The position numbers and the translations under genes are program-made. DNA of 58,778 nucleotides from positions 1 to 58,778 of IMG/VR virus record IMGVR_UViG_3300028025_003040. One strand, written 5' to 3'. Numbering within the stretch: position 1 is the stretch's first letter; each line of letters opens with the position of its first letter. The DNA is from a virus. Taxonomy: Duplodnaviria > Caudoviricetes. The notes beneath the pieces are model-generated. The model did not search any database. It had not been told where the DNA came from and was given only the letters and a program-made list of their open reading frames with translations. Shown one piece after another: positions 1 through 20,817 of the stretch.

Positions 1-90
1 TAAGCCCGAAGAAATCTTAGCGGTAATCGCTGAACTAAATAAACTCGGTAAGGGTTTCACTTATAACATTAGAGAAGTAGAGGTAAAGTA

Positions 91-258
91 ATGATGACTA
101 AATGGGATACTATCCAAGCAGATGTATCAGATGCCTATGTGTATCTAGATGAAGAAGAGATGTATAACAAGGCTCTAGAAGAGGGCTTAGATTTTGGCTC
201 TGATGAATACGATGAAGATGAACTATCTAAATCACTTACACTAGATTGGGATAACTAA
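91..258 (+). CDS. small acidic hypothetical protein (55 aa)
   Basis: Read by hand; ATG after GAGG, abuts the stop of a truncated upstream ORF; below ORF-track cutoff. Confidence 0.6.
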   Translation: MMTKWDTIQADVSDAYVYLDEEEMYNKALEEGLDFGSDEYDEDELSKSLTLDWDN

Positions 259-260
259 TA

Positions 261-416
261 ATGATTAGCGACGGATTAGAATTACTACTAAGCGAATATG
301 GATTAGAGTTAGATAGTTTCTTAGGGGCTATCTATCTACCATGGCACACTATCGCTATCACCGCCCTACTAATAACCGCTTATAAGATTTATAAGAGAAA
401 GAAGATAACTAAATGA
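261..416 (+). CDS. small putative membrane protein (51 aa)
   Basis: Read by hand; hydrophobic C-terminal half followed by basic tail; tight gene packing. Confidence 0.55.
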   Translation: MISDGLELLLSEYGLELDSFLGAIYLPWHTIAITALLITAYKIYKRKKITK

Positions 417-523
417 ATAGACTACTAACTACTATCGTGCAACTAGCCTTAGCAGTACCCGCCTACTATTGTGTGCGCTACATGATCGCAGACATGAAAG
501 AGATGTGGCGAGAAACACACTAG
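413..523 (+). CDS. small putative membrane protein (36 aa)
   Basis: ATGA overlap with previous ORF; hydrophobic N-terminus. Confidence 0.5.
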   Translation: MNRLLTTIVQLALAVPAYYCVRYMIADMKEMWRETH

Positions 524-570
524 GATAACGGCGTGTCGCCTTGACAAAGGCGGTGGCTGCCCCTAATCTT

Positions 571-619
571 TTGCGGGGTCGGGCGTGTCGTTACGTGATT
601 GTTATAAATTACCCTGGAT
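571..619 (+). repeat. tripartite element copy 1 (TTGNGGG-N13-TTACG-N15/16-CCCTGRAA)
   Basis: TTGCGGG 571, TTACG 591, CCCTGGAT 612; 571-595 is identical to 1902-1926. Confidence 0.85.
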
Positions 620-660
620 TTTACGGCGTGTCGATTTGACAGACAAATCGGACATTTTGG

Positions 661-676
661 TGTGATGTGATTCACA
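661..676. promoter_or_regulatory. CRP-family binding site
   Basis: TGTGA-TGTGAT-TCACA, exact TGTGA-N6-TCACA. Confidence 0.65.
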
Positions 677-724
677 TGACTTGAGCGTCTCATATCGTGG
701 AATTACTGGCTAGTAGGTAGAAAA

Positions 725-747
725 TTGTCGGTGGCTTAGGCTATAAT
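725..747 (+). promoter_or_regulatory. RecA-NDp/PafBC-type promoter
   Basis: TTGTCGGTG-N8-TATAAT upstream of ORF 777. Confidence 0.8.
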
Positions 748-776
748 AGCGGTATAACGAAAGGAAGTGGCTAACA

Positions 777-977
777 ATGGCTAACTTATACACAATAGAA
801 AACTTGCTAATCGGCAAGACTTACAACTCAAAAACTTTGCGTGGAGAAATTATCTCAGCAGAAAAACACCCGAAGGCAATTTGGTATGGAGAAAATACCG
901 AAGCCTATTTGGTAGAAATCAACGCTGGAACTTTCCGCAATAAATTCCGCACAATAGCGGTGAAGGTTGGTGAGTAA
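777..977 (+). CDS. hypothetical protein
   Basis: ORF track; SD AACGAAAGGAA at 756. Confidence 0.8.
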   Translation: MANLYTIENLLIGKTYNSKTLRGEIISAEKHPKAIWYGENTEAYLVEINAGTFRNKFRTIAVKVGE

Positions 978-979
978 TA

Positions 980-1102
980 ATGGGATACATTGAAATTTTT
1001 AGAGTAAATGAAGAAGGTGCTGGCTGGGTAGATTTATCCGAAGCCACACCCGAAGAAATCTTAGATTTAGAAATCGGACTATTTCAGGAAGGTGCTATCT
1101 AA
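980..1102 (+). CDS. small hypothetical protein (40 aa)
   Basis: Read by hand; packed between neighbours. Confidence 0.55.
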   Translation: MGYIEIFRVNEEGAGWVDLSEATPEEILDLEIGLFQEGAI

Positions 1103-1164
1103 TGAATTTAGAAGAATTTAAAAAAAGCGTTATCGCTCAGCGTGAAGCAAGCAAGGCGCAGGCC

Positions 1165-1187
1165 TTGTCGGTGCTATCTGCTACAAT
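1165..1187 (+). promoter_or_regulatory. RecA-NDp/PafBC-type promoter
   Basis: TTGTCGGTG-N8-TACAAT. Confidence 0.75.
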
Positions 1188-1219
1188 TACAACTCAAACA
1201 AACGAAGGGGAAAACCTAA

Positions 1220-1384
1220 ATGGCTAAAGTAAAAGAATACATAGAAATTATCGCAGCGAATTGCGATGAATGCGGTGGCGCAGGATTTTTATTCTGGGGC
1301 AACGAAAAAAACTTTGATGTAGAGCCTTGCGCTTGCGTAGATGAAATTGCAGATGAACTAACAGTAGATTGGGTAAATGACTAA
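1220..1384 (+). CDS. small Zn-finger-like protein (54 aa)
   Basis: Read by hand: CDECGGAG...CAC; SD AACGAAGGGG. Confidence 0.65.
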   Translation: MAKVKEYIEIIAANCDECGGAGFLFWGNEKNFDVEPCACVDEIADELTVDWVND

Positions 1385-1587
1385 TGTATAAACTAACTAT
1401 TGCTTATGACGGAAATGCGCCACTAATAACTGAAACTTATTCAGACGCATTAACCGCCGTTCATTCTTTTGATAAATGCTCAGACTTTGGCGACGCTAAA
1501 GAATACGCAACTTATAATTTGTCAGAGCCTAATGGTAAAATGCACACTAAGAACTTCTACCGAAATGGAAAGGTATCACAAAAATGA
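1384..1587 (+). CDS. hypothetical protein
   Basis: ORF track; TAATG coupling. Confidence 0.75.
   Translation: MYKLTIAYDGNAPLITETYSDALTAVHSFDKCSDFGDAKEYATYNLSEPNGKMHTKNFYRNGKVSQK
1519..1541 (+). promoter_or_regulatory. RecA-NDp/PafBC-type promoter (intragenic)
   Basis: TTGTCAGAG-N8-TAAAAT. Confidence 0.6.
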
Positions 1588-1775
1588 TGACACGAAAAGA
1601 TTATATCGCAACCGCAGAAATTCTAAACTATGTTAGCAATAAAACGCACCCCGCTGTTTTTTCTAAAATGGTAAATGATTTTGCGGAAATGTTTGCAAAA
1701 GATAATGAGCGATTTGATGTAAAAAGATTTCACGAAGCGAGTGGGTACAATGTTCCTAACTTCTCTTCAAGATAA
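1584..1775 (+). CDS. hypothetical protein
   Basis: ORF track; ATGA coupling. Confidence 0.75.
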   Translation: MMTRKDYIATAEILNYVSNKTHPAVFSKMVNDFAEMFAKDNERFDVKRFHEASGYNVPNFSSR

Positions 1776-1881
1776 AGTAAAACGCATTCAGGAATTGCGT
1801 CGCAGTAATGCGGCGCAACCTGTTCGCAATAAAAAAAAATACACACGCAAGATCAAACATAAAAATAAACTTGACAATTAG
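1750..1881 (+). CDS. small basic protein (43 aa)
   Basis: Read by hand: MFLTSLQDKVKRIQELRRSNAAQPVRNKKKYTRKIKHKNKLDN. Confidence 0.5.
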   Translation: MFLTSLQDKVKRIQELRRSNAAQPVRNKKKYTRKIKHKNKLDN

Positions 1882-1901
1882 CGCAGCTGGCCCGCAATAC
1901 G

Positions 1902-1950
1902 TTGCGGGGTCGGGCGTGTCGTTACGGGTGTGATCAAAAACACCCTGGAA
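1902..1950 (+). repeat. tripartite element copy 2
   Basis: TTGCGGG 1902, TTACG 1922, CCCTGGAA 1943. Confidence 0.85.
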
Positions 1951-1971
1951 ATTTTGGGCGTGTTGCAAAAA

Positions 1972-1994
1972 ATGTCAGTGGCCTGTGGTATTAT
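1972..1994 (+). promoter_or_regulatory. RecA-NDp/PafBC-type promoter
   Basis: ATGTCAGTG-N8-TATTAT. Confidence 0.75.
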
Positions 1995-2023
1995 TCCATT
2001 ATCAACAAACGAAAGGTCAACTC

Positions 2024-2179
2024 ATGAACGATATCAACTCATGCTACTGTACTAACTACTCTATCTGCACAATTTGTGCACGAGGCTATTCTAGCGAAGG
2101 AATGGCCGTGTATGATCGTGATCTAGCGCAAGACTGGGCCATGTCAAGAATGGCCGATGCAGAAATGGGGGATTTATAA
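2024..2179 (+). CDS. small Cys-rich hypothetical protein
   Basis: Track ORF 1985 re-started at the ATG after SD AACGAAAGG (2008). Confidence 0.65.
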   Translation: MNDINSCYCTNYSICTICARGYSSEGMAVYDRDLAQDWAMSRMADAEMGDL

Positions 2180-2201
2180 TGTCAGACCGTCCTGTTATAA
2201 T
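2179..2201 (+). promoter_or_regulatory. RecA-NDp/PafBC-type promoter
   Basis: ATGTCAGAC-N8-TATAAT; overlaps a 34-aa CxxC..CxxC ORF at 2179-2283. Confidence 0.7.
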
Positions 2202-2282
2202 AAACTGTTCCATATGCGATACGCCTACCGAGGGCCTATGGTTTAGTATTGGCGATGTGATAACCTGTGAGGAGTGTTGGTA

Positions 2283-3002
2283 ATGAAATTAAAACGTTCT
2301 AACGATAGAAAGGTGGCTAACCTTGTCACAAAAAATGGAAAGCAAGCAGCAATTGCAAACACGTTCGGATTACCCGCAGGAAAAGACTTTTCATGTCCTG
2401 GTGCTACGTCTATCTGTGAGACTGTTTGCTACGCTGGGAAACTTGAAAAACTATTCAAGGGAGTAAAGACTAATCTCCTGCACAATTGGGAATTACTACG
2501 CAATGCAGATATGGATAGCATGCTGCTATTGCTTGATGAAATGATTGTTGAATTCGTCAATGATTGCAATAAGAAAGACGCTCCTAAGTTATTCCGTATC
2601 CACTGGGACGGAGATTTCTTCAATGATACTTATACATATGCCTGGAAGACTGTTATCTCTAATCATCCCGATGTTCAATTTTGGGTTTATACACGTGTAA
2701 AGTCTGCAGCGCTTATTCTTAAGGATGTTACTAATCTTTCACTGTACTATTCCACCGACGATGAGAATAAGGAAATTGGCCACGAGTTAAAGAAGAATTC
2801 TGGTATCCGCCTTGCTTATCTAGGAAAGACATTCGCCTTAACCGAAAGCACAATGAAAGAGTTAACGGGGAGGCCTGGCGCTAAGTGTCCTGAAAATATG
2901 AAATCTATTCCACTAATTAGCAATGCAGGCTCCGCATGCGTATCATGCGGCTTATGTGTCTACGGTAAAGCAGACATTCGATTTAGCGCAACTAAAAAAT
3001 AA
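2283..3002 (+). CDS. phage gp88-like protein (radical-SAM-related fold)
   Basis: CPGATSICETVCYA Cys cluster, RIHWDGDF and WVYTR motifs, C-terminal CxxCxxC. Confidence 0.7.
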   Translation: MKLKRSNDRKVANLVTKNGKQAAIANTFGLPAGKDFSCPGATSICETVCYAGKLEKLFKGVKTNLLHNWELLRNADMDSMLLLLDEMIVEFVNDCNKKDAPKLFRIHWDGDFFNDTYTYAWKTVISNHPDVQFWVYTRVKSAALILKDVTNLSLYYSTDDENKEIGHELKKNSGIRLAYLGKTFALTESTMKELTGRPGAKCPENMKSIPLISNAGSACVSCGLCVYGKADIRFSATKK

Positions 3003-3011
3003 GGAGACAAA

Positions 3012-3146
3012 ATGCAAAATCCATTCTATACAATGCCCCTTGGTTACATGAATGCATTAATAGCTAGCGTGACTGGCGATGAAGAATCTTCTAAGCTGGC
3101 TAAAGAATATTTAGCAGATGTTGATCCCGACACTTGGTCCGATTAG
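3012..3146 (+). CDS. small hypothetical protein (44 aa)
   Basis: Read by hand; AAGGAG SD. Confidence 0.55.
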   Translation: MQNPFYTMPLGYMNALIASVTGDEESSKLAKEYLADVDPDTWSD

Positions 3147-3175
3147 CTTGACAAACTAGATCAAAGCCCGCAACG

Positions 3176-3223
3176 TTGCGGGGTTATCCACAGTTTTACG
3201 AGAGTTATCCACAACCCCTGAAA
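3176..3223 (+). repeat. tripartite element copy 3, both spacers filled by DnaA boxes
   Basis: TTGCGGG 3176, TTACG 3196, CCCTGAAA 3216; TTATCCACA at 3184 and 3205. Confidence 0.85.
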
Positions 3224-3224
3224 A

Positions 3225-3240
3225 TGTGAGGTTAATCACA
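3225..3240. promoter_or_regulatory. CRP-family binding site
   Basis: TGTGA-GGTTAA-TCACA. Confidence 0.65.
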
Positions 3241-3272
3241 AAAGCTGCGACACGCCGAGAATGGATTAGGTA

Positions 3273-3295
3273 ATGTCGGTGGCTTAGTGTAAAAT
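3273..3295 (+). promoter_or_regulatory. RecA-NDp/PafBC-type promoter
   Basis: ATGTCGGTG-N8-TAAAAT. Confidence 0.75.
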
Positions 3296-3324
3296 ACCAT
3301 TATCAACCAAACGAAAGGCAACAA

Positions 3325-3531
3325 ATGAAAATCATCAGCCACTCTCTAAACTTCGTTACTGAAATTGACGAAACAAATCCAACTGCACAACGCTTACTTG
3401 CGTTACCTGAAAAGGAACAAATCCTTATGCTAGAAGGAATGTTAAAGTCTATCTTGCTTCCTAAGATTACTCCAGTTATCGACGAAGTAAATGAAGGTGG
3501 CTCTTGGGCTATTCTAAAGGTGGTGAAGTAA
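3325..3531 (+). CDS. hypothetical protein
   Basis: ORF track; SD AACGAAAGG at 3310. Confidence 0.8.
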   Translation: MKIISHSLNFVTEIDETNPTAQRLLALPEKEQILMLEGMLKSILLPKITPVIDEVNEGGSWAILKVVK

Positions 3532-3806
3532 TGTTATCAACTGCAACTGCGTTGCTAGACGCAACTAAAGACTCTATGTTCGATGAGGATATCATGGGGC
3601 TTGCGGGTGAACTACACACTCGCAGAAATGAACTTAGCGATGAAATTTTTGCTAAGTACCTATTTATGTATTCATCTGCCCTATCTGCTAAAGTAGCCGA
3701 TAGCATAACTAAGGTATTGCTAACTGAGCAAGAAATGTCAGACCTATGCGCTACAATAGACGAAATGGAAAACCTATCCGAAACTATCCTAGAGGAGAAC
3801 GAGTAA
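3531..3806 (+). CDS. hypothetical protein
   Basis: Track ORF 3504 re-started at TAATG overlap; contains ATGTCAGAC-N8-TACAAT promoter at 3735-3757. Confidence 0.75.
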   Translation: MLSTATALLDATKDSMFDEDIMGLAGELHTRRNELSDEIFAKYLFMYSSALSAKVADSITKVLLTEQEMSDLCATIDEMENLSETILEENE

Positions 3807-4072
3807 TGGGATTAAACACAGCAATAGACTTGGCAGAGAGTTTTGACCTAGACCAATCTATTTTAATTCATCTACAAAGTAATCACTATCCACCCGTACC
3901 CGCATCAATGGTACAACCATGTATCGATGCTATCGATGCCTACTACGATGAGGACTATGATAAATTGATCAAACTGCCTGAGCCAGTATTGTGGAAAGGT
4001 AGAGACGAAGCACCCGCTTCCGCTATCATAGAGGCTCATCACCTAGACGCTTGGCTTCCTGAGTCTTACTGA
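3806..4072 (+). CDS. hypothetical protein
   Basis: Track ORF 3746 re-started at TAATG overlap with GAGGAG SD. Confidence 0.75.
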   Translation: MGLNTAIDLAESFDLDQSILIHLQSNHYPPVPASMVQPCIDAIDAYYDEDYDKLIKLPEPVLWKGRDEAPASAIIEAHHLDAWLPESY

Positions 4073-4118
4073 CGGGTAAGGGGGGTGTGGTACAAATCAC
4101 ACCCCCATAAACTACTAA

Positions 4119-4141
4119 TTGTCGGTGGTATCCGCTATAAT
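4119..4141 (+). promoter_or_regulatory. RecA-NDp/PafBC-type promoter
   Basis: TTGTCGGTG-N8-TATAAT; preceded by inverted repeat 4081-4106 enclosing TGTGG-N6-TCACA. Confidence 0.8.
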
Positions 4142-4169
4142 ACTACCAACACCAAACGAAAGGAAACAA

Positions 4170-4316
4170 ATGCTAGAAATCGGACAGACCTTCACAACAA
4201 CACAGACAGGTATCACAGGTATTATCAAAGCCGTTGATAATCACCCAAGCGGTGTAAATCGTGTGCTACTAGATGTCAATGGCACAGAACGCTGGACAAG
4301 CGTATCTGCTGAATAA
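4170..4316 (+). CDS. small hypothetical protein
   Basis: SD AACGAAAGGAAA at 4155. Confidence 0.7.
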   Translation: MLEIGQTFTTTQTGITGIIKAVDNHPSGVNRVLLDVNGTERWTSVSAE

Positions 4317-4331
4317 TTCCTAATCGGGAAA

Positions 4332-4361
4332 TGTCCTGAGCATGACAACTAAAACTGCTCA
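4332..4361 (+). ncRNA. H-type pseudoknot motif, copy 1
   Basis: TGTC-CTGAGCAT-GACA-actaaaac-TGCTCA. Confidence 0.6.
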
Positions 4362-4388
4362 ACCCACAAACCCAACGAAAGGAATACC

Positions 4389-4805
4389 ATGTCAAGACAA
4401 ATCACAGTAAAGGTAGCAACAGCAAAAGTAATCAAGGCACTAGAGGCTCGTCTAGCAACGCTAGAAAAAGATTACTCATCACAAGAAGCAAACGAAGCCA
4501 AGTATCAAAAAGCCCGTGAAAAGTGGCAGAAAGAAATTGGTAAATGGGCTATTGAGAACTTCTCAAAGGCTGAAAATATCAGAACAAATTATCGTCAATG
4601 GAACAACACTCTTAATGTTGATTTTGACATCATCACAAAGGAAAGCAATTTCCCTACTGAACCTGAAAAAGACTACGAGCAAATCCATCAGCACACTTAT
4701 CGTGAGATGAAAGAGGACATCACAAATGCCCTAACAATTCTCAAAATGACAGATGAGGAAACAGTAAATGCTTCCACAATGAAGCAGATTGCTAAGTATC
4801 TCTAA
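4389..4805 (+). CDS. hypothetical coiled-coil protein
   Basis: ORF track; SD CAACGAAAGGAA at 4373. Confidence 0.85.
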   Translation: MSRQITVKVATAKVIKALEARLATLEKDYSSQEANEAKYQKAREKWQKEIGKWAIENFSKAENIRTNYRQWNNTLNVDFDIITKESNFPTEPEKDYEQIHQHTYREMKEDITNALTILKMTDEETVNASTMKQIAKYL

Positions 4806-4878
4806 CTGATGGCAGGGGGCTAGACAAAATCTAGCCCCCAATGCTACAATAGTTATCCCTACTAACAAAGGAAACAAA

Positions 4879-5103
4879 ATGCGTAATCGCTTTAGAATTG
4901 AAATCTATGACGCAAACAAAGCAAATGATTTAACAATGTACTCAGAGCAAGGCGTAGACAAAGAGTATCTAACTGAATTAGTATTCTCTAACCTCCGCCG
5001 TTTTAATGGTAAAGTTCGTGCCTATGTTTATGATAGCGTAAAGAAAAAGAAAATCACCGCAATGTTTCTTAATGAAGAAACAGTTGCTTCCTTAAATAAA
5101 TAA
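4879..5103 (+). CDS. hypothetical protein
   Basis: ORF track; SD AAAGGAAA; upstream hairpin 4816-4839. Confidence 0.75.
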   Translation: MRNRFRIEIYDANKANDLTMYSEQGVDKEYLTELVFSNLRRFNGKVRAYVYDSVKKKKITAMFLNEETVASLNK

Positions 5104-5108
5104 GAGCT

Positions 5109-5135
5109 TGGGGCGGGATCAAACTCGCCCCATTT
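5109..5135 (+). terminator. putative intrinsic terminator
   Basis: TGGGGCGGG-atcaaa-CTCGCCCCA-TTT right after the stop codon. Confidence 0.55.
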
Positions 5136-5166
5136 CCCAAATGTCCGTTTTGTCTGCCCCCATTCG

Positions 5167-5214
5167 TTGAGGGGTTTTCCACATGTTTACGACAAGCTGT
5201 GGATAACCCTGAAA
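5167..5214 (+). repeat. tripartite element copy 4 with DnaA boxes in both spacers
   Basis: TTGAGGG 5167, TTACG 5187, CCCTGAAA 5207; TTTTCCACA 5175 and TGTGGATAA 5198. Confidence 0.85.
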
Positions 5215-5217
5215 ATT

Positions 5218-5233
5218 TGTGAGATTGATCACA
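5218..5233. promoter_or_regulatory. CRP-family binding site
   Basis: TGTGA-GATTGA-TCACA. Confidence 0.65.
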
Positions 5234-5270
5234 TGACGCAATTCGGACAAATGACTCCTTAGACTAGTAA

Positions 5271-5293
5271 ATGTCAGACCCCTATGTTATACT
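5271..5293 (+). promoter_or_regulatory. RecA-NDp/PafBC-type promoter
   Basis: ATGTCAGAC-N8-TATACT. Confidence 0.75.
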
Positions 5294-5320
5294 AATCAAA
5301 CAATCAACCGAAAGGAAATC

Positions 5321-6325
5321 ATGGCTCACAATCTCGAAACCGAAAACGGCGAAGTTGCATTTGCTCTTCGTGGCGCACCTGCTTGGCATAACCTTGCCAA
5401 TCGTATCTTCAATCAAGATGAAGAAGTTACAACACAAACAATGCTTGATGAAGCAAAACTATCCAACTGGAATGTTCGCTTATCTCCATTGACCGACCAC
5501 ATTTCAGAATCTTGGAATGATGTATCAAATGCATCTCTTGTCATTCGTGACAACCCATTCAATAAGGGAATCGATGTTCTTGCAACTGTTGGCAAACGTT
5601 ACAAGCCTGTGCAGAATGAAGAACTATTTGCATTCGCTGATGCAATTCACGATGCCAATGCTGATTGCCGTTGGGAATCTGCGGGTTCTCTTAAGAAAGG
5701 CAAAGTTGTATTTGGTACTGTAGATATTCCTCGCACAATGGTTCTTGACCCACAAGGCGCCAATGACCAAACAAAGTTATATCTAATCGTATGGACATCA
5801 CACGATGGTTCTGTTGCCGTTCAAGCAGCGGTTACACCTGTTCGTGTTGTATGTCAAAACACGCTAAACCTTGCAATGAAGAATGCTAAGCAATCTTTCA
5901 AGATTCGCCACACGCAATCTGTTGAAGGTCGCATTCAAGTTGCTCGTGAAACTCTTGGGCTTGCTCTTGGTTATTTCGATGAATTCGAAGTTCAAGCAAA
6001 GGCTCTTTATTCACAAGCAATTACCGATGCTGAATTCTCTAAGTTAATTCAGACAATCTATCCTAAGCCTGAAAAAGATGCTAAGGGTGCATTGAAGAAG
6101 TGGGAAAATAAAGTTGTTCTAATTGACGACCTTTATCATAACTCACCAACCAATGCGACAATCAAGGGAACAAAGTGGGGTGCATTCAATGCACTAACTG
6201 AGCGCCTTGATTACTACCGCTCTGGTCGTGGTAATTCAGAATCCCTAATGGCGGGTGCAAGTGGTTTTGACCCAATCTTAACCGCAGAAAAAAATAAGTT
6301 GTATCGAATGGTTGCAACTTTCTAA
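5321..6325 (+). CDS. DUF932-family (TIGR03299-like) phage/plasmid protein
   Basis: MAHNLE..PAWH, YKPVQN, ESAGSL, SHDGS, TPVRVVCQNTL, GTKWGAFNALTE motifs. Confidence 0.85.
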   Translation: MAHNLETENGEVAFALRGAPAWHNLANRIFNQDEEVTTQTMLDEAKLSNWNVRLSPLTDHISESWNDVSNASLVIRDNPFNKGIDVLATVGKRYKPVQNEELFAFADAIHDANADCRWESAGSLKKGKVVFGTVDIPRTMVLDPQGANDQTKLYLIVWTSHDGSVAVQAAVTPVRVVCQNTLNLAMKNAKQSFKIRHTQSVEGRIQVARETLGLALGYFDEFEVQAKALYSQAITDAEFSKLIQTIYPKPEKDAKGALKKWENKVVLIDDLYHNSPTNATIKGTKWGAFNALTERLDYYRSGRGNSESLMAGASGFDPILTAEKNKLYRMVATF

Positions 6326-6331
6326 ATAATA

Positions 6332-6360
6332 AAATCCTGAGCAAGATTTAAAACTGCTCA
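6332..6360 (+). ncRNA. H-type pseudoknot motif, copy 2
   Basis: AAATC-CTGAGCAA-GATTT-aaaac-TGCTCA, 6 nt before tRNA-Asp. Confidence 0.6.
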
Positions 6361-6366
6361 CCATTT

Positions 6367-6443
6367 GGTCCATTAGCTCAGTTGGTTAGAGCGCTACCCT
6401 GTCACGGTAGAGGTCGACGGTTCAAGTCCGTTATGGATCGCCA
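6367..6443 (+). tRNA. tRNA-Asp(GTC)
   Basis: Cloverleaf; anticodon arm CTACC-CTGTCAC-GGTAG; TTCAAGT T-loop; encoded CCA. Confidence 0.93.
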
Positions 6444-6473
6444 GGTGTATCAAAATGTGAGACGCCCCCAAGA

Positions 6474-6522
6474 TTGAAGGCAGGATTTTTGTGTTACGAA
6501 TCACAAAAAAATTACCCTGGAA
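6474..6522 (+). repeat. tripartite element copy 5 with overlapping CRP-like site
   Basis: TTGAAGG 6474, TTACG 6494, CCCTGGAA 6515; TGTGT-TACGAA-TCACA 6490-6505. Confidence 0.8.
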
Positions 6523-6533
6523 AGCTATTGTAA

Positions 6534-6556
6534 ATGTCAGTGGCACCCACTATAAT
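6534..6556 (+). promoter_or_regulatory. RecA-NDp/PafBC-type promoter
   Basis: ATGTCAGTG-N8-TATAAT; second copy GTGTCAGAC-N8-TAGAAT at 6679-6701. Confidence 0.75.
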
Positions 6557-6562
6557 AGCGAC

Positions 6563-7207
6563 ATGTTCAAATCATATTGGTATGTGTGTACATCTTGTGA
6601 TGCATCTATTGAGATCGTATCTAAGGGAATACATTTTCAGGACCCGTCCTGTAATTGTTCAGACCCAGCAGTTGTATGGTGTCAGACCAGTGTGGTAGAA
6701 TCATCCACTAACCAAACGAAAGAGGAACAAATGGAAGAAACAACATATGGAGCAACAGTAACACCTGCAGTAACCGTGCCTGACACATACAATCCTAATC
6801 TATTGGTAACCTATAAAGTTATCCACGGATATTCAGATGCAGAATACGCAACTGATAAGGTCACATCAATTGAATGGGACTTGCACAATGCACGTCAAGC
6901 ACAGAAGCGTAATGCAGTTTTTCAAGATAAGATTGATGCAGTCAAGCAAATTATCTGCGAAGCATATGCAGATTCACAAGACCAAGACACATTGCGTGAA
7001 ATTGCTGAAGCGCTTGATATTGAACTTGTCAAGGAAGTTGAGTGGACTGCATCTATCGAAGTTAGCGGAACATATTCATACAACATTCTTGAGAATGATT
7101 ACGAGTTAGACCTCGAGTCAGATATTACAGATGCAATCTTTGCTGATTCACATCACGGAAACATTGAAATTAATGACCAAGAAGTATGTAATGTTAGGGA
7201 AGCCTAA
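6563..7207 (+). CDS. hypothetical protein with N-terminal Zn-ribbon; alternative start at 6731
   Basis: Track ORF 6491; ATG 6563 lies 6 nt after a -10 box; ATG 6731 has its own SD and promoter. Confidence 0.7.
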   Translation: MFKSYWYVCTSCDASIEIVSKGIHFQDPSCNCSDPAVVWCQTSVVESSTNQTKEEQMEETTYGATVTPAVTVPDTYNPNLLVTYKVIHGYSDAEYATDKVTSIEWDLHNARQAQKRNAVFQDKIDAVKQIICEAYADSQDQDTLREIAEALDIELVKEVEWTASIEVSGTYSYNILENDYELDLESDITDAIFADSHHGNIEINDQEVCNVREA

Positions 7208-7422
7208 TGTATTTTGAACTAAAGGCACCAAACCAGTTGGCCCTGCAAGGGGCCTTCTGGGAAGCCGAAGTAGTTGGTCTTGACCCTGAATTAAATTCAC
7301 AACCATTGACATTCAATATCGGAACTGGTAGCATAGAGAAGGTGAGTCGCATTCGTGATAAGTATAACTTAGTAGAGTCATACACTAGCGATTACGAGCC
7401 AACAGGATATACAAGGAGATAA
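7207..7422 (+). CDS. hypothetical protein
   Basis: ORF track; TAATG coupling. Confidence 0.75.
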   Translation: MYFELKAPNQLALQGAFWEAEVVGLDPELNSQPLTFNIGTGSIEKVSRIRDKYNLVESYTSDYEPTGYTRR

Positions 7423-7423
7423 A

Positions 7424-7570
7424 ATGTCAGACTATAAAGATGGTTTCACAGATGGCGTTAAGTGGGCTAAGGAAGACTTAGCAGAGCGCCTACGTGAAAT
7501 TGATATTATGGATATCGATTCGTGGATGTTAGATAGACTAGCAGATATGATAGAGGGCGGAGATCTCTAA
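7424..7570 (+). CDS. small hypothetical protein (48 aa)
   Basis: Read by hand; AAGGAG SD. Confidence 0.65.
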   Translation: MSDYKDGFTDGVKWAKEDLAERLREIDIMDIDSWMLDRLADMIEGGDL

Positions 7571-7773
7571 TGGAAGATTTAACTAGATGGATCGGCTGCG
7601 ATCAATGCGGGACAGCTCAAGCAATGTATCTAATTAAACTAGTAGATGGTGAGCTGTACTTTTGTCACCACCACTATAATAAAAACAAAGAGGCCCTTGA
7701 CAAGGTTTCATTTGAAATGATAGAATTGAATAAAACAGAAGAAGTACCTCAACTAGAAACGGCGGAAATATAA
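7570..7773 (+). CDS. small Zn-binding protein
   Basis: CDQC...FCHHH motif. Confidence 0.7.
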   Translation: MEDLTRWIGCDQCGTAQAMYLIKLVDGELYFCHHHYNKNKEALDKVSFEMIELNKTEEVPQLETAEI

Positions 7774-8180
7774 TGGGAGATAGAGCAAACTTTGGATTCG
7801 TCCAACCTAATGGAAATACAATTGTGCTATACGGTCACTGGGCTGGATACAACATGCTTGGTAAGTTAGCGGATGCTGTAATCGCTGCTCGTCCAAGGTG
7901 GACCGATACATCATATGCAACACGTATTGCTATCAGTCAATTAATTGGAGACCAATGGAATATGGAAACAGGTTGGGGCCTGCAGGTAAATGAGCGCTCT
8001 GACAATGAACATAAGATTGCAATCGTAGACTTTGAACAGCAAACGTTTTCTCTTCACGAGGAAGACGACTTTAGAAATCAAGACAACAAAGTTCGTGGAA
8101 TGAAGAATGAAGCAATCTTTACCATGGACCTGTCAGCATTCTGCGAGAAGTATGCATTGGAAAATATCTTAGTCAACTAA
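7773..8180 (+). CDS. hypothetical phage protein
   Basis: ORF track; MGDRAN..LYGHW N-terminus. Confidence 0.8.
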   Translation: MGDRANFGFVQPNGNTIVLYGHWAGYNMLGKLADAVIAARPRWTDTSYATRIAISQLIGDQWNMETGWGLQVNERSDNEHKIAIVDFEQQTFSLHEEDDFRNQDNKVRGMKNEAIFTMDLSAFCEKYALENILVN

Positions 8181-8196
8181 TATGATATAATATTGA

Positions 8197-8330
8197 TAGG
8201 CCTGGTGCCTATTCATATGAGTGGTGCATCTACTCAAGATGCTAAGTAAGGCAGGTTTTTCCTTTCGTTGAGGTCCTAGCAGCCGCTCCTTTAAACCCCC
8301 GTGTATTACAGTCCACGGGGGTTTATTCTT
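8197..8330 (+). ncRNA. candidate sRNA with anti-Shine-Dalgarno loop
   Basis: TGaTATAAT at 8183-8191; internal stems; TTTCCTTTCGTTG at 8258-8270; terminator AAACCCCCGTG..CACGGGGGTTT at 8293-8324; no credible ORF. Confidence 0.6.
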
Positions 8331-8342
8331 GCCCGCAAAAGC

Positions 8343-8391
8343 TTGAGGGTAAAATATTCTTCTTACGGAAGTCAAATAAATTTCCCAGGAA
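8343..8391 (+). repeat. tripartite element copy 6
   Basis: TTGAGGG 8343, TTACG 8363, CCCAGGAA 8384. Confidence 0.8.
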
Positions 8392-8442
8392 TTTCAGCAT
8401 ATGAGATCATGTGGTGTAGAACACACCCATATAGTATATACA

Positions 8443-8465
8443 ATGTCAGTGGTCTAATATATAAT
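8443..8465 (+). promoter_or_regulatory. RecA-NDp/PafBC-type promoter
   Basis: ATGTCAGTG-N8-TATAAT. Confidence 0.75.
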
Positions 8466-8492
8466 AAGAACATATCAGCGAAAGGATATAAT

Positions 8493-9269
8493 ATGCCAAA
8501 CTGGGTGTATAACACATTAACTATACAAGGACCAAAAGAACAAGTAGATTCAATTAAAGATAGATTAAATGCTCCATTTACATTAGCACAGGAGACATTT
8601 GGTATGGGTGATATTTCTTCTATGGGATTTCCTACTAAGATTATTCAGGTATCTTATTCTAATCCCGTTTTTTCTTTCAACAATATCCATTCATATAAGG
8701 ATGACGGAATTACTGATGAGGAATATGCCTGCCAACCTAATCGTGGTGATATAGATATTCAGAATGACCCTGATTGGTTCCGCAAATCTGTTGAGTTTGC
8801 TAAGACTCAGAAGGATTGGTACTCTTGGAATAATTCTAACTGGGGAACTAAATGGGATGTAGCCGTCCGTGACGGAGATGAATATCCAAATACAGAACTA
8901 ATTGAATATAAGTCAGAAGGTGAAGACAACTGGGTTATATATAAATATGAGACTGCATGGTCACCTGCTGTAACTATCTTAACTAAACTAAGTAATCTTG
9001 TTCCTAACTGTGTTCTTACTTTAGAATTTGAGGAAGAGACAGGTTGGGGTGGTGAATATGAAATTATCAAGGGTGAAGTAAGAGAACTAATGGAATGGGA
9101 GAATCGTTGTTATGCTTGCCAATCTTTTGATACATTGAGTTACTGTGAAGATGAATGTGGAGAGTTCTGCTCAGAATGTAATCAAGGCTCTTGGCAGGAT
9201 GAAGAGGCAATGGCAAAATGTCAGACCCACATGGTACTATTGGAATCTACAGAAAAGGCGGAAGTATGA
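8493..9269 (+). CDS. DUF1281/YubB-like ferredoxin-fold protein with Cys-rich tail
   Basis: MPNWVYNTL start, WYSWN..NWGTKWD, ETAWSP motifs; internal promoter at 9218-9240. Confidence 0.75.
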   Translation: MPNWVYNTLTIQGPKEQVDSIKDRLNAPFTLAQETFGMGDISSMGFPTKIIQVSYSNPVFSFNNIHSYKDDGITDEEYACQPNRGDIDIQNDPDWFRKSVEFAKTQKDWYSWNNSNWGTKWDVAVRDGDEYPNTELIEYKSEGEDNWVIYKYETAWSPAVTILTKLSNLVPNCVLTLEFEEETGWGGEYEIIKGEVRELMEWENRCYACQSFDTLSYCEDECGEFCSECNQGSWQDEEAMAKCQTHMVLLESTEKAEV

Positions 9270-9496
9270 GTTTCTTAGAAAACGAAAACCAAATGGTGAT
9301 TGACGCTGAACTGCAAGAAATTGCAGAACAGTTATTAGATGACTGGATGAATTCTAATTTAGATGAAGGTCAGTTATATGCAGATTGGAGAATTGCAGAC
9401 ATGTCATCTAGCAATTATCTCAAAGGTAGGTTTAATCAACATTATGATTTAACACCTGATAACCAATACTATCTAGAATTTGATGAGGAGAAATAA
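9266..9496 (+). CDS. hypothetical acidic protein
   Basis: ATGA coupling. Confidence 0.7.
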   Translation: MSFLENENQMVIDAELQEIAEQLLDDWMNSNLDEGQLYADWRIADMSSSNYLKGRFNQHYDLTPDNQYYLEFDEEK

Positions 9497-9660
9497 TGTT
9501 AGGGTATACGCAGAAAGATTTGGCAGATATGACCTATGGGGTCTACCAAGCTGACCTGTTGGTCAATGCTGATGAAAATCCTGCAATTCATAATTATTTA
9601 GTTATGGCTCATGATTTCTTACAGGGCTTGTGGGCAGAAGGGTATTTCGATCATGTCTAA
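9496..9660 (+). CDS. small hypothetical protein (54 aa)
   Basis: Read by hand; GAGGAG SD, TAATG coupling. Confidence 0.65.
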   Translation: MLGYTQKDLADMTYGVYQADLLVNADENPAIHNYLVMAHDFLQGLWAEGYFDHV

Positions 9661-9838
9661 ATCATCTTACTTCCTAGAATATATGAAAGTTCATTTAATT
9701 AGTCTTATACAAGATTTAGATAAAGATTTGAATGTTGAATCTAAGATTAATATCCAAGGACAAATTATGGCAACAGAACATTTGTTGTCAGTGGCTACTG
9801 ATATAATGAATTCTTCTAACGAAAGGGTATATGAATGA
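9653..9838 (+). CDS. hypothetical protein
   Basis: Track ORF 9611 re-started; contains TTGTCAGTG-N8-TATAAT at 9785-9807. Confidence 0.65.
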   Translation: MSKSSYFLEYMKVHLISLIQDLDKDLNVESKINIQGQIMATEHLLSVATDIMNSSNERVYE

Positions 9839-10098
9839 GACATACTGAACTTCCCGTCCATTTACAACGAATGGTAGACGCAGAGGTAACGGGGCTCGAC
9901 ATCATGCATGGAGAACTAAAAAACCTCATGCTTCTTGGAGAAAAGGAATTAGAGCGGACCTTGATAGCGGAACAAGAATCAGGAGAAGCAATGGATTCTA
10001 TGGAACGTACTTATGCAGAAGGATATCTAGACGCATTAGTATCTTTATATAAACTAACATATGATTTATCATTTGCCATTGGGGGAAAAAATGAGTAG
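9835..10098 (+). CDS. hypothetical protein
   Basis: ORF track; SD AACGAAAGGG. Confidence 0.75.
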   Translation: MRHTELPVHLQRMVDAEVTGLDIMHGELKNLMLLGEKELERTLIAEQESGEAMDSMERTYAEGYLDALVSLYKLTYDLSFAIGGKNE

Positions 10099-10321
10099 TT
10101 ATGAGCCAAGCTTGGAAATCCTGGAAGTTAATTACGGCTGTTCTCCAGGAGGTGTAGATACATTTGAGGTCTATGATAGATCTGAGATTGAGCCTGTACA
10201 AATACCAATATATGAGACAGAGTCCTTGACCGAAGCGGTCCTATTCTGTTACAATTTGGGAAAGGACTTTATTGTTCGAACATTAGCGGAATGGGAAGAA
10301 CGGGAGTTAATGAATGCCTAA
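10091..10321 (+). CDS. hypothetical protein
   Basis: Track ORF 10061 re-started at overlap. Confidence 0.7.
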   Translation: MSSYEPSLEILEVNYGCSPGGVDTFEVYDRSEIEPVQIPIYETESLTEAVLFCYNLGKDFIVRTLAEWEERELMNA

Positions 10322-10493
10322 ATACAGAGTCTTTGGAGTTCAAGAAAAGAATTACTATGCAATCGTTGAGGCAACTGACGAATATGAAGCATGGGACATA
10401 ATCAACGGGGACAAAGTCTTCCAATGGTTTGCAATACCTACAGATAAAACAATCGAACCTACTGAAGTATATGGGGAGTATGATGAAGCCTGA
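10314..10493 (+). CDS. small hypothetical protein (59 aa)
   Basis: Read by hand: MPKYRVFGVQEKNYYAIVEATDEYEAW... Confidence 0.65.
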   Translation: MPKYRVFGVQEKNYYAIVEATDEYEAWDIINGDKVFQWFAIPTDKTIEPTEVYGEYDEA

Positions 10494-10812
10494 TGACAAA
10501 GATAAACTAAATGAATGCTTAAAGATTCTAGATTCCACCGACCTTGGCTTGTCCCTGGTTTGGCTATGGACCTGGTCTACAATTAATAACATCTTTGAGG
10601 ATGAGACCTACAAGCAGAACTGCACCATAGATGAGATGTGGGACCACCTCTGTGAGGCTGTGGAGGCAGGCCAGGGCTTCTCTCTAGAGTACGGGGCAGA
10701 ACAACATCAAGACGACGTACTTGAATGGATGATGAATCGTGAATACATTGTAGACACAATGTTTGAGGAAGACGAGGAGGACGAAGATGAGGATGAAGAT
10801 AAAGATGAGTGA
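10480..10812 (+). CDS. hypothetical protein with acidic tail
   Basis: Track ORF 10429 re-started at GGGGAG SD. Confidence 0.75.
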   Translation: MMKPDDKDKLNECLKILDSTDLGLSLVWLWTWSTINNIFEDETYKQNCTIDEMWDHLCEAVEAGQGFSLEYGAEQHQDDVLEWMMNREYIVDTMFEEDEEDEDEDEDKDE

Positions 10813-10945
10813 TCAATATGTCGACTCTGTCCTTGCAGAGGCCCAACGGCTTCTGTGGGGCGGATCTGAGACAGAGAACATTGCTGCACACAACCTGATA
10901 GCAAAGCTTATTAAAGACAGATTACCTGATGAAGAAGTGGAGTAG
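10805..10945 (+). CDS. small hypothetical protein
   Basis: Track ORF 10763 re-started at overlap. Confidence 0.6.
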   Translation: MSDQYVDSVLAEAQRLLWGGSETENIAAHNLIAKLIKDRLPDEEVE

Positions 10946-11153
10946 ATTCTACAAAACTATAGATAAGCAGATCTATGTTTATTTAAAGAATGAGGATCCT
11001 GACACATATAAGGTACATGCATATGGGATGTCTAGATACTATAAAGGCGAGGACGCAATTCAGCAGCTTATTAAATTAGTTAGAGATTTAGGCGATTGTG
11101 ATCTAAATGAATCTTTAATTAAAGAAGCAAAGAAAGAATTCGTGGGGGCGTAA
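10929..11153 (+). CDS. hypothetical protein
   Basis: ORF track. Confidence 0.6.
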   Translation: MKKWSRFYKTIDKQIYVYLKNEDPDTYKVHAYGMSRYYKGEDAIQQLIKLVRDLGDCDLNESLIKEAKKEFVGA

Positions 11154-11189
11154 AAAGCTTGTTACGAAACAATTAAATATCGGCTGGAA
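11142..11189 (+). repeat. tripartite element copy 7 (degenerate)
   Basis: GTGGGGG 11142, TTACG 11162, GGCTGGAA 11182. Confidence 0.6.
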
Positions 11190-11192
11190 CTA

Positions 11193-11221
11193 TTGACCAA
11201 ATCGGCAATAGTTGATATACT
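11193..11221 (+). promoter_or_regulatory. housekeeping sigma promoter
   Basis: TTGACC-N17-TATACT. Confidence 0.65.
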
Positions 11222-11255
11222 AATATAAAACAATATCTCGAAAGGATATACTACT

Positions 11256-11402
11256 ATGACAACAAAGCGTGAATATCTAAAGTCACAAGGAATTACAGTT
11301 GGTGCCCGTGGTCGTTTCTCAGGAGCTGCAAAGGTAGCTATTGATGAGGCCCTGAAGAAGGGTGTTAGCTTCACAGCTGAGAAGCCTGCAGCAAAGAAGT
11401 AA
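11256..11402 (+). CDS. Lsr2-like stand-alone DNA-binding domain (48 aa)
   Basis: Read by hand: MTTKREYLKSQGITVGARGRFSGAAKVAIDEAL..., like the Lsr2 C-terminal RxW..G..V..RGR AT-hook; SD CGAAAGGA. Confidence 0.65.
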   Translation: MTTKREYLKSQGITVGARGRFSGAAKVAIDEALKKGVSFTAEKPAAKK

Positions 11403-11484
11403 CACATATAGATCGGAGGGGCTGGTTGACGAGAGTTGCCAGCCCTTCCCCAATTTGGTACAATACTATAACGAAAGGCGGACT

Positions 11485-11853
11485 ATGAGTAAAACACCAG
11501 AAACAAAAGTAGCAGAACAACTAATCAATCTAACAGAAAGCCATTGGTTCAATCCAGCAACGCTGGGTAGTTATATGGCAGACCAACCGCTATATACTAT
11601 TGACCGAGTTATGGAAATGCTTGCTCAAACAGTTCATTATCTAAATAAGAGATATGGACAAGAGCAAATCAATGGTCGCACATCAGAAGGTCTATTGCTT
11701 GCTAATAAATTAGACATGTTAATTAAATCTATTAAACATACTGACAATCTTCAACTGCCGAAGGCACCTTCTAAGATAATTGGCGGGATAAAGAAAATGG
11801 ATCCCTCCCTCAGATACTCTCATATCAGAGAGACCAATAGCCAAGTACAATAG
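11485..11853 (+). CDS. hypothetical protein
   Basis: SD AACGAAAGG at 11470; last gene of the + arm. Confidence 0.75.
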   Translation: MSKTPETKVAEQLINLTESHWFNPATLGSYMADQPLYTIDRVMEMLAQTVHYLNKRYGQEQINGRTSEGLLLANKLDMLIKSIKHTDNLQLPKAPSKIIGGIKKMDPSLRYSHIRETNSQVQ

Positions 11854-12384
11854 AATAAACATATAGCCCAAATTATCCACAGTCTTATCCACAGGCTGTG
11901 GATTTTTTGTGGACAAAATTGGGGGCAGCTTTTTCCTTTTACGAGAGATCTAAAAATATCCTGGAATATCTGAGAGAAATGTATATATATCTTATTAAAC
12001 ATTATATATATGTCGACAAATCTATATAGAATTTAATAGAATTGTGGGCAAATTTTCCCGTTTACGGGGGCATATTAAATACCCCTGAAGCCTACAAATG
12101 TCGACAAAATGCTTGACAAATTTGCACGGATGTGCATCTATTGACATAAATGGAGCAAAATGGTATTAAGTGGGTAATTGTGGAGGGTGTTCAAATACAC
12201 ATATGTATATATGTCGATATATTGATAGTGTGCTGGAGGGAATTAATAGTATTTACTTTGGTAGATATCCTGTAGATATGGCTCTAAAAAGGCTTATAAG
12301 AGGATTTGAGGGGGGTCTGAGGGGAAGGGGATATAGGAGTTAGATGCTATTTTGGATGCTATCTCAGCAATTTATAGAGGCATG
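11854..12384. other. non-coding arm junction with DnaA-box cluster (origin-like or terminal-repeat end)
   Basis: TTATCCACA 11873 and 11885, TGTGGATTT 11897, TGTGGACAA 11908; tripartite copies 8 (11919-11966) and 9 (12042-12090); AT-rich tract about 11980-12040. Confidence 0.55.
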
Positions 12385-12585
12385 TTAATCATGCATTATG
12401 GCTGAGTTCATCCAGATATCTCCATCATTGTTGATCGAGTACTTTAGAATCATTGTCTTATTACACTTTAAGCATTTAGGTAAGAAGTCTAACTCTCTAC
12501 TTAGCTCTATATTCATCTCTGATCTATCTGACATACATAGGAAGTTATAGGTGAATATGGGATCTATCTCGCCTTCCCGCCCCAT
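12385..12585 (-). CDS. small Zn-ribbon protein
   Basis: YNFLC...PKCLKC..M pattern; true start may be internal. Confidence 0.5.
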   Translation of the reverse strand: MGREGEIDPIFTYNFLCMSDRSEMNIELSRELDFLPKCLKCNKTMILKYSINNDGDIWMNSAIMHD

Positions 12586-14093: not shown

Positions 14094-14130
14094 ATACCTA
14101 TAATACAATTTATGTGAAAGAATGTCAATG

Positions 14131-14201
14131 CTCCCAGACATAGATTCGAACTATGATTCACGGCTTCAAAGGCCGTTGTCCTGCCGTTGGACGATCTGGG
14201 A
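14131..14201 (-). tRNA. tRNA-Gln(TTG)
   Basis: Cloverleaf; ACGGC-CTTTGAA-GCCGT; TTCGAAT. Confidence 0.9.
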
Positions 14202-20227: not shown

Positions 20228-20516
20228 CTGGTTTTCCTTCCAACTCGCATCTTACTCCGTATGATTCTATAATCTTTTTAATCATTTCAACATAATCAAT
20301 AACTCTTAATTTTAAAGATCCATCATACTGCGAAAAGTTATCTTCATATAGTCTTATGGCTAAAAACTCTGGGTACTCTACTATATCCATTTGTAAATCA
20401 TGTGCTGGCCTTTTTATTTCTCTTAACTTTCTAGCCATCTCTTTTGTGTAAAATACGGGTTTGTCGGGCTCTCCTGTCCATAAATTAATACCGTGCTGAA
20501 AATGATTATTTGCCAT
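20202..20516 (-). CDS. hypothetical protein
   Basis: ORF track. Confidence 0.7.
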   Translation of the reverse strand: MANNHFQHGINLWTGEPDKPVFYTKEMARKLREIKRPAHDLQMDIVEYPEFLAIRLYEDNFSQYDGSLKLRVIDYVEMIKKIIESYGVRCELEGKPGERKLRNN

Positions 20517-20817
20517 GTTTTTTCTTTAACCTCTTCCAGACATCTTGTGTTTTATGGATGTTTCTTGCTTTATCAATTGAACCAGAATTTAAATAAACTC
20601 CACCCCAAATTCCATGTTCATCATTTTCTATACCAGACTCATAACACATTTTTATAACTGGACAAGATAGACACGCTTCGTCTATACTTTTTGCTATATT
20701 TGAATCTGCTTCATATTTTTCATAAAATAAATTGGTATCCATTCCTCTACATACTGCAAGGTGCCACCAATCAAAATCATCTTTATCTATGCCGAGATCA
20801 TTTAAAATACTTGACAT
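20506..20817 (-). CDS. whiB: WhiB-family Fe-S transcription factor
   Basis: W...AVCRG.DTNLF, CLSCPVIKMC, GIWGG. Confidence 0.92.
   Translation of the reverse strand: MSSILNDLGIDKDDFDWWHLAVCRGMDTNLFYEKYEADSNIAKSIDEACLSCPVIKMCYESGIENDEHGIWGGVYLNSGSIDKARNIHKTQDVWKRLKKKHGK

Follow-up and report, generated by a model that had tools for sequence, protein, structure and literature searches.

The window analyzed here, the whole 58,778-nucleotide (nt) stretch of IMG/VR virus record IMGVR_UViG_3300028025_003040, belongs to a 54%-complete virus record with a G+C content of 38%. Its first part, from position 1 to about 11.9 kilobases (kb), is a + strand block of about 36 mostly small open reading frames (ORFs), which is followed by a long arm of - strand genes. 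Within the + block a bipartite promoter motif, TGTCRG-N10-TAnnnT, recurs ahead of one gene after another; it consists of a TGTCAG or TGTCGG box and, 10 nt further on, a TAnnnT -10 element. The + strand sites are listed below (lengths of products are given in amino acids, aa).

726..747, + strand: P726 (TGTCGG-N10-TATAAT), upstream of the 66-aa ORF 777-977
1166..1187, + strand: P1166, upstream of ORF 1220-1384 and inside ORF 1102-1227
1520..1541, + strand: P1520, upstream of ORF 1584-1775
1973..1994, + strand: P1973, upstream of ORF 2024-2179
2180..2201, + strand: P2180, upstream of the GP88-family gene 2274-3002, with a leader of 72-81 nt
3274..3295, + strand: P3274, upstream of ORF 3325-3531
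3736..3757, + strand: P3736, upstream of ORF 3806-4072
4120..4141, + strand: P4120, upstream of ORF 4170-4316
5272..5293, + strand: P5272, upstream of the DUF932 gene 5321-6325
6535..6556, + strand: P6535, with ATG 6563 six nt past the -10 and a predicted leaderless mRNA of ORF 6563-7207
6680..6701, + strand: P6680, inside ORF 6563-7207, feeding the in-frame internal start 6731
8444..8465, + strand: P8444, upstream of gene 8493-9269 (DUF1281_C / Api92-like domain)
9219..9240, + strand: P9219, upstream of ORF 9266-9496
9786..9807, + strand: P9786, upstream of ORF 9835-10098

The window contained 15 matches to the motif, 14 of them on the + strand (726-9807) and one on the - strand (29858), against an expectation of 0.95 (standard deviation 0.87, maximum 3), and 15 or more matches were reached in 0 of 100 dinucleotide shuffles. 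The single - strand match has a weak -10 (TACCTT) and is within chance expectation. Variants with one mismatch numbered 14 on the + strand and 12 on the - strand over the whole window; three of them fell within the + block, and none of these three had promoter-like character. The box promoter class is sharply bounded. A first-pass annotation of this DNA had reported 14 + strand copies, several of them inside coding sequence ahead of the next gene. All are present, each starting 1 nt further to the right (the base before TGTC had been counted), and six of them (1166, 1520, 3736, 6680, 9219 and 9786) do lie within the preceding ORF.

At 12 of the 14 sites, a purine-rich ribosome site (mostly aACGAAAGG) and an ATG were found 25-48 nt past the -10. 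The TGTCAGACC flavour of the box was present at five sites, and sites without the TG of an extended -10, for example P726 and P6535, still carry a perfect box. The GP88-family gene has a long leader behind P2180 in the window and is leaderless in relatives. The placement of P6535 and P6680 on one reading frame suggests that a long and a short isoform may be produced. Paired promoters about 170-180 nt apart, as in this pair, recur in most relatives.

Conservation was assessed in 80 related loci comprising 1.34 megabases (Mb), and the rigidity counts were made over 81 blocks. In the 80 loci the gene strand carried 1185 copies of the motif and the opposite strand 6, compared with 21 occurrences of a reversed control pattern. 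Five relatives of 115-120 kb, which are 92-100% complete, each carried 14-18 motifs in one block of about 11 kb, with 1-3 motifs on the other strand or elsewhere and 0-3 controls per strand. When the spacing between box and -10 was set to 7, 8, 9, 10, 11, 12 and 13 nt, the numbers of forward sites were 2, 16, 6, 1199, 1, 87 and 14, respectively; most of the 87 sites at a spacing of 12 are probably re-readings of TATAAT-like -10 elements. When single positions of the box were freed, the expected base was retained in 1199 of 1201 matches at T1, 1199 of 1242 at G2, 1199 of 1211 at T3 and 1199 of 1210 at C4. With positions 5 and 6 freed, AG (1112) and GG (87) together accounted for 1199 of 1248.

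The sequence logo of 852 unique instances was aaaTGTCAG(T/A)(G/C)(C/G)....(T)GnTA(t/c)AAT. In these instances an extended -10 was frequent, though not present at every site: position -15 was T in 66% and position -14 was G in 80%. A -35 signal was also looked for, and the positions expected for it carried no more than 0.17 bits. In 57 unique orthologous regions upstream of the DUF932 gene, AATGTCAG, TGTTATA and CGAAAGG were invariant, while the intervening bases drifted. Scanning IMG/VR with TGTCAG-N7-TGnTATAAT gave 80 loci; 40 of them had at least four motifs on the same strand, and all 40 had a G+C content of 36-43% and were kin to the window phage, some of them distantly. It is beyond reasonable doubt that the box sites are promoters.

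The position of the start codons allowed the transcription start to be estimated. Among 805 unique promoters, 75 had the ATG of an ORF of 200-240 aa either 6 nt (35) or 7 nt (40) past the -10, whereas no promoter had an ATG at 3-5 or 8-12 nt, and the other starts began from 13 nt, mostly at 25-40 nt. Leaderless mRNAs are common in actinobacteria, and the class at 6-7 nt reads as their signature. This signature would place +1 at 7-8 nt past the -10 and hence the box at -28 to -23. Contigs from two metatranscriptome runs spanned 29 of 30 and 30 of 30 bins of window positions 1-12500 (at least 85% likeness), but such contigs cannot show starts, may reflect DNA in the libraries, and speak neither for nor against transcription starts.

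Next, we compared these promoters with those of PafBC. The in vivo PafBC motif given by Müller et al. 2021 (PMC8635444) is tGTCgg(N10)tA(N3)T, and its box lies at -23 to -28. In that work, GTC is described as strictly conserved across actinobacteria, the promoters as having no -35, and PafBC is modelled as inserting between sigma region 4 and the DNA. The PafBC protein is already present before stress (PMC6789036), and single-stranded DNA (ssDNA) of as little as 6 nt suffices to switch it on (PMC11804915). As far as sequence can tell, the phage box promoters are an exact match to this -26/-10 hybrid promoter: both have a 22-nt bipartite motif, a box at -28 to -23, an invariant GTC, a canonical -10, no -35 and an actinobacterial setting. 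The identity of the motif with the RecA-NDp/PafBC motif, proposed in the first-pass annotation, was therefore borne out in core, spacing and absence of a -35. The window sites differ in that they belong to a phage, where about 10 kb accommodates 14-18 copies, and in that T1, A5 and G6 are invariant in the phage box and only weakly conserved in the published consensus. Moreover, they usually have an extended -10 TG, and many have a phased upstream TGTGA-N6-TCACA. To our knowledge, PafBC promoters have so far been described only within the damage regulon of the host itself. A literature search, in which most hits were judged from titles or abstract openings, found no paper on phage promoters with the PafBC/RecA-NDp motif. 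A 2025 study by Rafique et al. reportedly concerns PafBC and mycobacteriophage resistance.

Natural recA promoters provided a further comparison. In a PafBC-rich actinobacterial class, WYL matches were found in 282 of 294 genomes, mostly two in each; this tally includes 23 genomes marked as unpublished. All 11 recA loci read in that class (genomes G448, G447, G449, G343, G459, G458, G294, G445, G235, G212 and G279) carried a (T/G)GTC(A/G)(G/T)-N10-TAnnnT promoter downstream of a TTGAC/LexA-box promoter, with TGTCAG in six of them and TGTCAGACC in two. At these loci the PafBC-type promoter (TGTC(A/G)-type) was preceded by repeated GTGTAAT-like words. A PafBC-type motif also lay before recA in three of four genomes of a low-GC (37-42%) Actinomycetota order with genomes of 1.3-1.5 Mb. 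In that order, G027, G208 and G209 had no WhiB match, and at least G027 had tandem WYL genes. Whole low-GC genomes of 1.3-1.5 Mb contained only 10-23 matches of the strict motif each, which is near the controls. In the low-GC small Actinomycetota G012, G156, G114 and G182 the recA promoter was TTGACA with a LexA-box (TCGAAC-N4-GTTCG) and had no PafBC-type box; three of these four had no WYL match.

The gene content of the window informs on the phage and its host. The genes of the long - arm include those for DnaE, DnaB, a primase, a RecA-like protein, WhiB, GroES and thioredoxin, as well as tail and lysis genes. DnaE was 56-59% identical to that of Streptomyces phages of Stanwilliamsviridae (BillNye, 58.7%, and Jay2Jay). 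The DUF932 gene 5321-6325 had 281 relatives in IMG/VR and was about 50% identical to a gene present twice per record at the ends of Streptomyces BE-type phages, which places this homologue within their terminal repeat. The + block also gave an Lsr2-like hit, which probably belongs to the 48-aa ORF 11256-11402, which has a GARGRF motif. In one complete relative that was read whole, the block was the only + strand module and was flanked by - strand modules. The phage is an actinophage of about 115 kb with WhiB, related to the Streptomyces Stanwilliamsviridae, and it appears to be lytic. Further features of the window are as follows.

6367..6443, + strand: tRNA-Asp(GTC), inside the + block between the DUF932 gene and P6535
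11875..11903, + strand: terminator-like hairpin of 11 pairs with a T run, closing the + block at the junction with the - arm
20506..20817, - strand: WhiB-family gene with the four-Cys pattern and GIWGG, a marker of actinobacterial hosts

Six tRNA genes are present in the window, at 6367-6443 on the + strand and at 14130-14275, 27332-27479 and 27829-27903 on the - strand. A megablast of the + block against cultured phages found nothing, and between 26 and 52% of the sampled words of the block were found in freshwater, plankton and subsurface metagenome runs (18 runs from 13 studies), of which the best-matching run is possibly the source sample. A host search by DnaE scan of genome contigs matched only cellular DnaE, at 32-39% identity and in many phyla, and revealed no phage contig that had been mis-binned. 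The WhiB gene, the Lsr2-like hit, the kinship with Streptomyces phages, which are the nearest cultured relatives, and the leaderless starts together point to an actinobacterial host, as had been supposed in the first-pass annotation.

That annotation had also called for a check of predicted hosts for pafBC and of the rest of the phage for WYL genes, and had offered as an alternative that the phage encodes a PafBC-like activator outside the window. Among 201 sampled Actinomycetota genomes, 102 matched the WhiB of the phage and 141 matched HTH_PafC (133 over the cut-off); genomes marked as unpublished (G008, G025, G055, G089, G095, G127, G155 and G181) are counted in these tallies. The HTH_PafC match was present in 99 of the 102 WhiB-matching genomes and in 42 of the 99 others; the sampled genomes are related to one another and not independent, and the Fisher p-value of this comparison is accordingly no probability of independence. 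A WhiB-bearing host is thus very likely to possess PafBC. Low-GC small Actinomycetota were tried as a host type and set aside: a WhiB match was absent in 12 of 12, including all 10 that were tested for WYL, which makes them poor host candidates. The alternative of a phage PafBC-like activator, on the other hand, found no counterpart in the five 92-100% complete relatives, none of which had a WYL gene or an HTH_PafC or HTH_11 match over the cut-off. Sigma region 2 was likewise absent from all five, and none of these families was found in the window itself. A search of the five relatives for a single-subunit RNA polymerase (PF00940) had no match, which is uninformative, as the control had no match either. 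A tiny helix-turn-helix resembling sigma region 4 at 32177-32266 on the - strand scored 18.2 bits, below the cut-off.

Beyond what the first-pass annotation described, the + block also contains four or five conserved ordinary -35/-10 promoters and a TGTGA-N6-TCACA motif. The ordinary promoter-like sequences are the following.

7306..7334, + strand: TTGACA-N17-(TGg)TAGCAT, conserved in relatives
7697..7726, + strand: TTGACA-N18-(TGa)TAGAAT, upstream of the 135-aa core gene 7773-8180 and kept in most relatives
10226..10255, + strand: TTGACC-N18-TACAAT
11193..11221, + strand: TTGACC-N17-TATACT, upstream of the 48-aa ORF 11256-11402
11436..11464, + strand: TTGCCA-N17-TACAAT, upstream of the 122-aa ORF 11485-11853 and conserved in relatives

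The cassette of the + block thus mixes two promoter classes. The genes behind the ordinary promoters are core genes of unknown function, present in 20-21 of 21 full-length loci. For the 135-aa product (7773-8180, phrog_31860) a confident alpha/beta model was obtained (predicted local distance difference test, pLDDT, 88.8), which had no helix-turn-helix and no match in the PDB by Foldseek at E<=0.001. The model of the 122-aa product (11485-11853) was weak and all-helical (pLDDT 68.9) and likewise had no helix-turn-helix. No family known to bind DNA or sigma was recognised among the 36 ORF products of the + block; the Pfam matches at E<=0.01 comprised four families, and of 10 PHROG families only one was named (Lsr2-like). 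For the - arm, the promoters had earlier been described as ordinary TTGAC-N16/18-TAnnnT or extended -10 types. Plausible TTGACA-N17/18-TAnnnT sequences do occur on the - strand at 42045, 27943 and 21097, but as a class they are only about twofold over shuffles: TTGAC-N17-19-TAnnnT was found 22 times, compared with 10.7 in mononucleotide shuffles, and its TGn subset 7 times, compared with 1.1.

The second element, the TGTGA-N6-TCACA palindrome, lies upstream of five of the box promoters.

661..676, no strand assigned: exact palindrome, starting 65 nt before the P726 box
3225..3240, no strand assigned: exact palindrome, starting 49 nt before the P3274 box
4086..4101, no strand assigned: palindrome with one mismatch, within a G5/C5 hairpin and starting 34 nt before the P4120 box
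5218..5233, no strand assigned: exact palindrome, starting 54 nt before the P5272 box and conserved in orthologous regions
6490..6505, no strand assigned: palindrome with one mismatch, starting 45 nt before the P6535 box

With up to one mismatch allowed, the whole window contained seven palindromes compared with 2.19 expected, and five of them (three exact) were in the + block. One complete relative had seven exact palindromes, all within its block. Across the 80 loci, nearly all unique copies (306 of 316) were less than 150 nt upstream of a box, and distances of 44, 49, 54, 64 and 86 nt from palindrome to box were taken by 48, 50, 93, 40 and 9 copies, respectively. The corresponding centres would lie near -64.5, -69.5, -74.5, -84.5 and -106.5. 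Such spacing, in steps of roughly one helical turn, suggests that a factor contacts the polymerase from one face. TGTGA-N6-TCACA is given as the CRP-family consensus in PMC10187061, and the reader may be either a CRP/GlxR-type protein of the host or one made by the phage. The phage sites resemble CRP-family class I sites in their exact consensus palindrome and in centres stepped by about 10 bp upstream of promoters. They differ in where the centres lie (-64.5, -74.5 and -84.5, plus the -69.5 class), which is not where class I centres of E. coli CRP are found. In more distant relatives (L407 and L417; 49-62% identity in the best tblastx segment), 14-16 box promoters were present and no palindrome, and the two elements are therefore separable.

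How these promoters might be used was considered in the light of all the above. We lean, at somewhat better than even confidence, towards host PafBC as the factor that drives the box promoters. On this view the 14 promoters serve RNA polymerase with the housekeeping sigma in an actinobacterial host; instead of a -35 they carry the invariant TGTCAG/TGTCGG box at -28 to -23, exactly 10 nt before the TAnnnT -10. They would drive, gene by gene, a cassette of small ORFs that resembles a host-takeover module and that we infer to be early. Host PafBC, constitutively present and activated by ssDNA, would insert between sigma region 4 and the -26 element (sigma adaptation), and the cassette would fire once infection generates ssDNA. 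Presence before stress and activation by ssDNA are properties that could make PafBC usable by a phage at the moment of entry. In a bolder version, which we regard as quite unlikely, the ssDNA alarm would serve as ignition and the array also as a decoy. Infection ssDNA would activate PafBC and fire 14-18 near-optimal promoters per phage genome copy, and the array, which would offer about as many PafBC sites as a whole small host genome, would, as the phage replicates, titrate PafBC and starve the host's damage and defence regulon, with the palindromes adding a CRP-type (cAMP/energy) input.

Several observations weigh against a role of host PafBC. PafBC dependence is deduced from DNA sequence. 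The two cultured relatives examined lack the motif, Jay2Jay having 2 matches compared with 5 for the control and BillNye, under a broader pattern, 6 compared with 11; the motif is therefore no family trait where PafBC hosts are known. In small-genome Actinomycetota, GTC-N12-TAnnnT lay within 400 nt upstream of recA in only 3 of 20, and 8 of 10 low-GC small Actinomycetota had no WYL match. The extended -10 present at most sites can make a -35 or an activator unnecessary. It is risky for a phage to depend at time zero on a factor that damage must activate. The invariance of T1, A5 and G6 means that the reader could be a different protein of tighter specificity, and the four or five conserved ordinary promoters mean that a phage activator could be expressed first.

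The last two points lead to a phage protein as the reader of the box, which we consider possible though unlikely. The box promoters would then form a middle or delayed-early class like the MotA-box promoters of T4, with the activator, which might or might not be joined by a binder of sigma region 4, made first from the ordinary promoters or injected with the DNA. The architecture is indeed T4-middle-like, with a box at about -26/-30, a -10, no -35 and many copies in a pre-replicative cassette, and a parallel to AsiA/MotA is drawn in PMC8635444. Ordinary promoters, at 7306, 7697, 10226, 11193 and 11436, precede core genes, the box is more invariant than the published host consensus, and the cultured relatives grow on PafBC-bearing Streptomyces without the box. 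However, the survey of the 36 + block ORF products revealed no DNA- or sigma-binding family, and the 135-aa product has neither a helix-turn-helix nor a PDB match; together with the weak, all-helical 122-aa model, its fold neither supports nor kills this explanation. A phage activator would also have to match the core and the exact spacing of host PafBC by coincidence. Actinobacterial promoters often have no -35, and the sites might also work as plain extended -10 promoters that initiate without the box. The box would then be an operator, at which, for instance, a later phage protein could shut the cassette off or a host repressor could act. In favour of this are the frequent TG at -15/-14 (T 66%, G 80%) and the need of an early promoter array for a common shut-off. 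The box is not palindromic, however, its distance of 10 nt is fixed in 1199 of 1325 forward matches at spacings of 7-13, for which a polymerase-contacting factor is expected rather than an operator, and P726 and P6535 keep a perfect box in spite of lacking the TG; we find this explanation decidedly unlikely. Finally, another host factor that shares the TGTC core could read the box, either an alternative sigma or a different sigma-adapting activator. A second such activator, AfsR, is described in PMC11804915, where the principle is suggested to be widespread in actinobacteria, and actinobacterial genomes encode a mean of 5.2 WYL proteins (PMC6789036). Against this, the -10 is the housekeeping TAnnnT with TGn, and the core, the spacing and the next bases (T/A then G/C) match the PafBC element and natural recA promoters, which leaves another host factor very unlikely.

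Comparison with other phages and switches places the host PafBC explanation in context. The MotA box of T4 lies at -30. Like the middle promoters of T4 (MotA/AsiA), the box promoters form a pre-replicative phage class in which an element near the -10 takes the place of the -35 and the housekeeping sigma is redirected; unlike them, they have a different box sequence and position, and while T4 encodes both factors, none was recognised in the window phage. BE-type phages such as Jay2Jay share with the window phage a cassette in which numerous small ORFs lie on one strand behind individual promoters, and have the DUF932 homologue in their terminal repeat. The promoters of Jay2Jay, in contrast, are of the ordinary TTGTAT-N17-TAGACT type (by eye, in about 9 of 23 upstream stretches) and have no box motif. 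In Jay2Jay 1-16000, the word CCGGACA(C/A)TTT precedes the ordinary promoters of many terminal-repeat genes. Bacillus phage SPO1 likewise has a host-takeover module with a strong early promoter array in its terminal repeat. LexA-controlled prophage switches are repressor-released and found in temperate phages. They too tie phage transcription to the DNA-damage state of the host, but the window phage, apparently lytic, would use an activator-type damage promoter for its early genes.

A widespread and abundant uncultured actinophage group would have rebuilt its whole early cassette on the PafBC promoter type. If this is true, it would be the first case of a lytic phage whose start is switched by a damage sensor of the activator type and by sigma adaptation, a counterpart of T4 MotA/AsiA built from host parts, and the cassette would provide a compact, strong and natural set of PafBC-responsive promoters. 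The finding bears on the exploitation by phages of ssDNA-sensing WYL regulators, which also control phage defence, and the conservation of the box across the phylum makes the idea directly testable in tractable, non-pathogenic actinobacteria.

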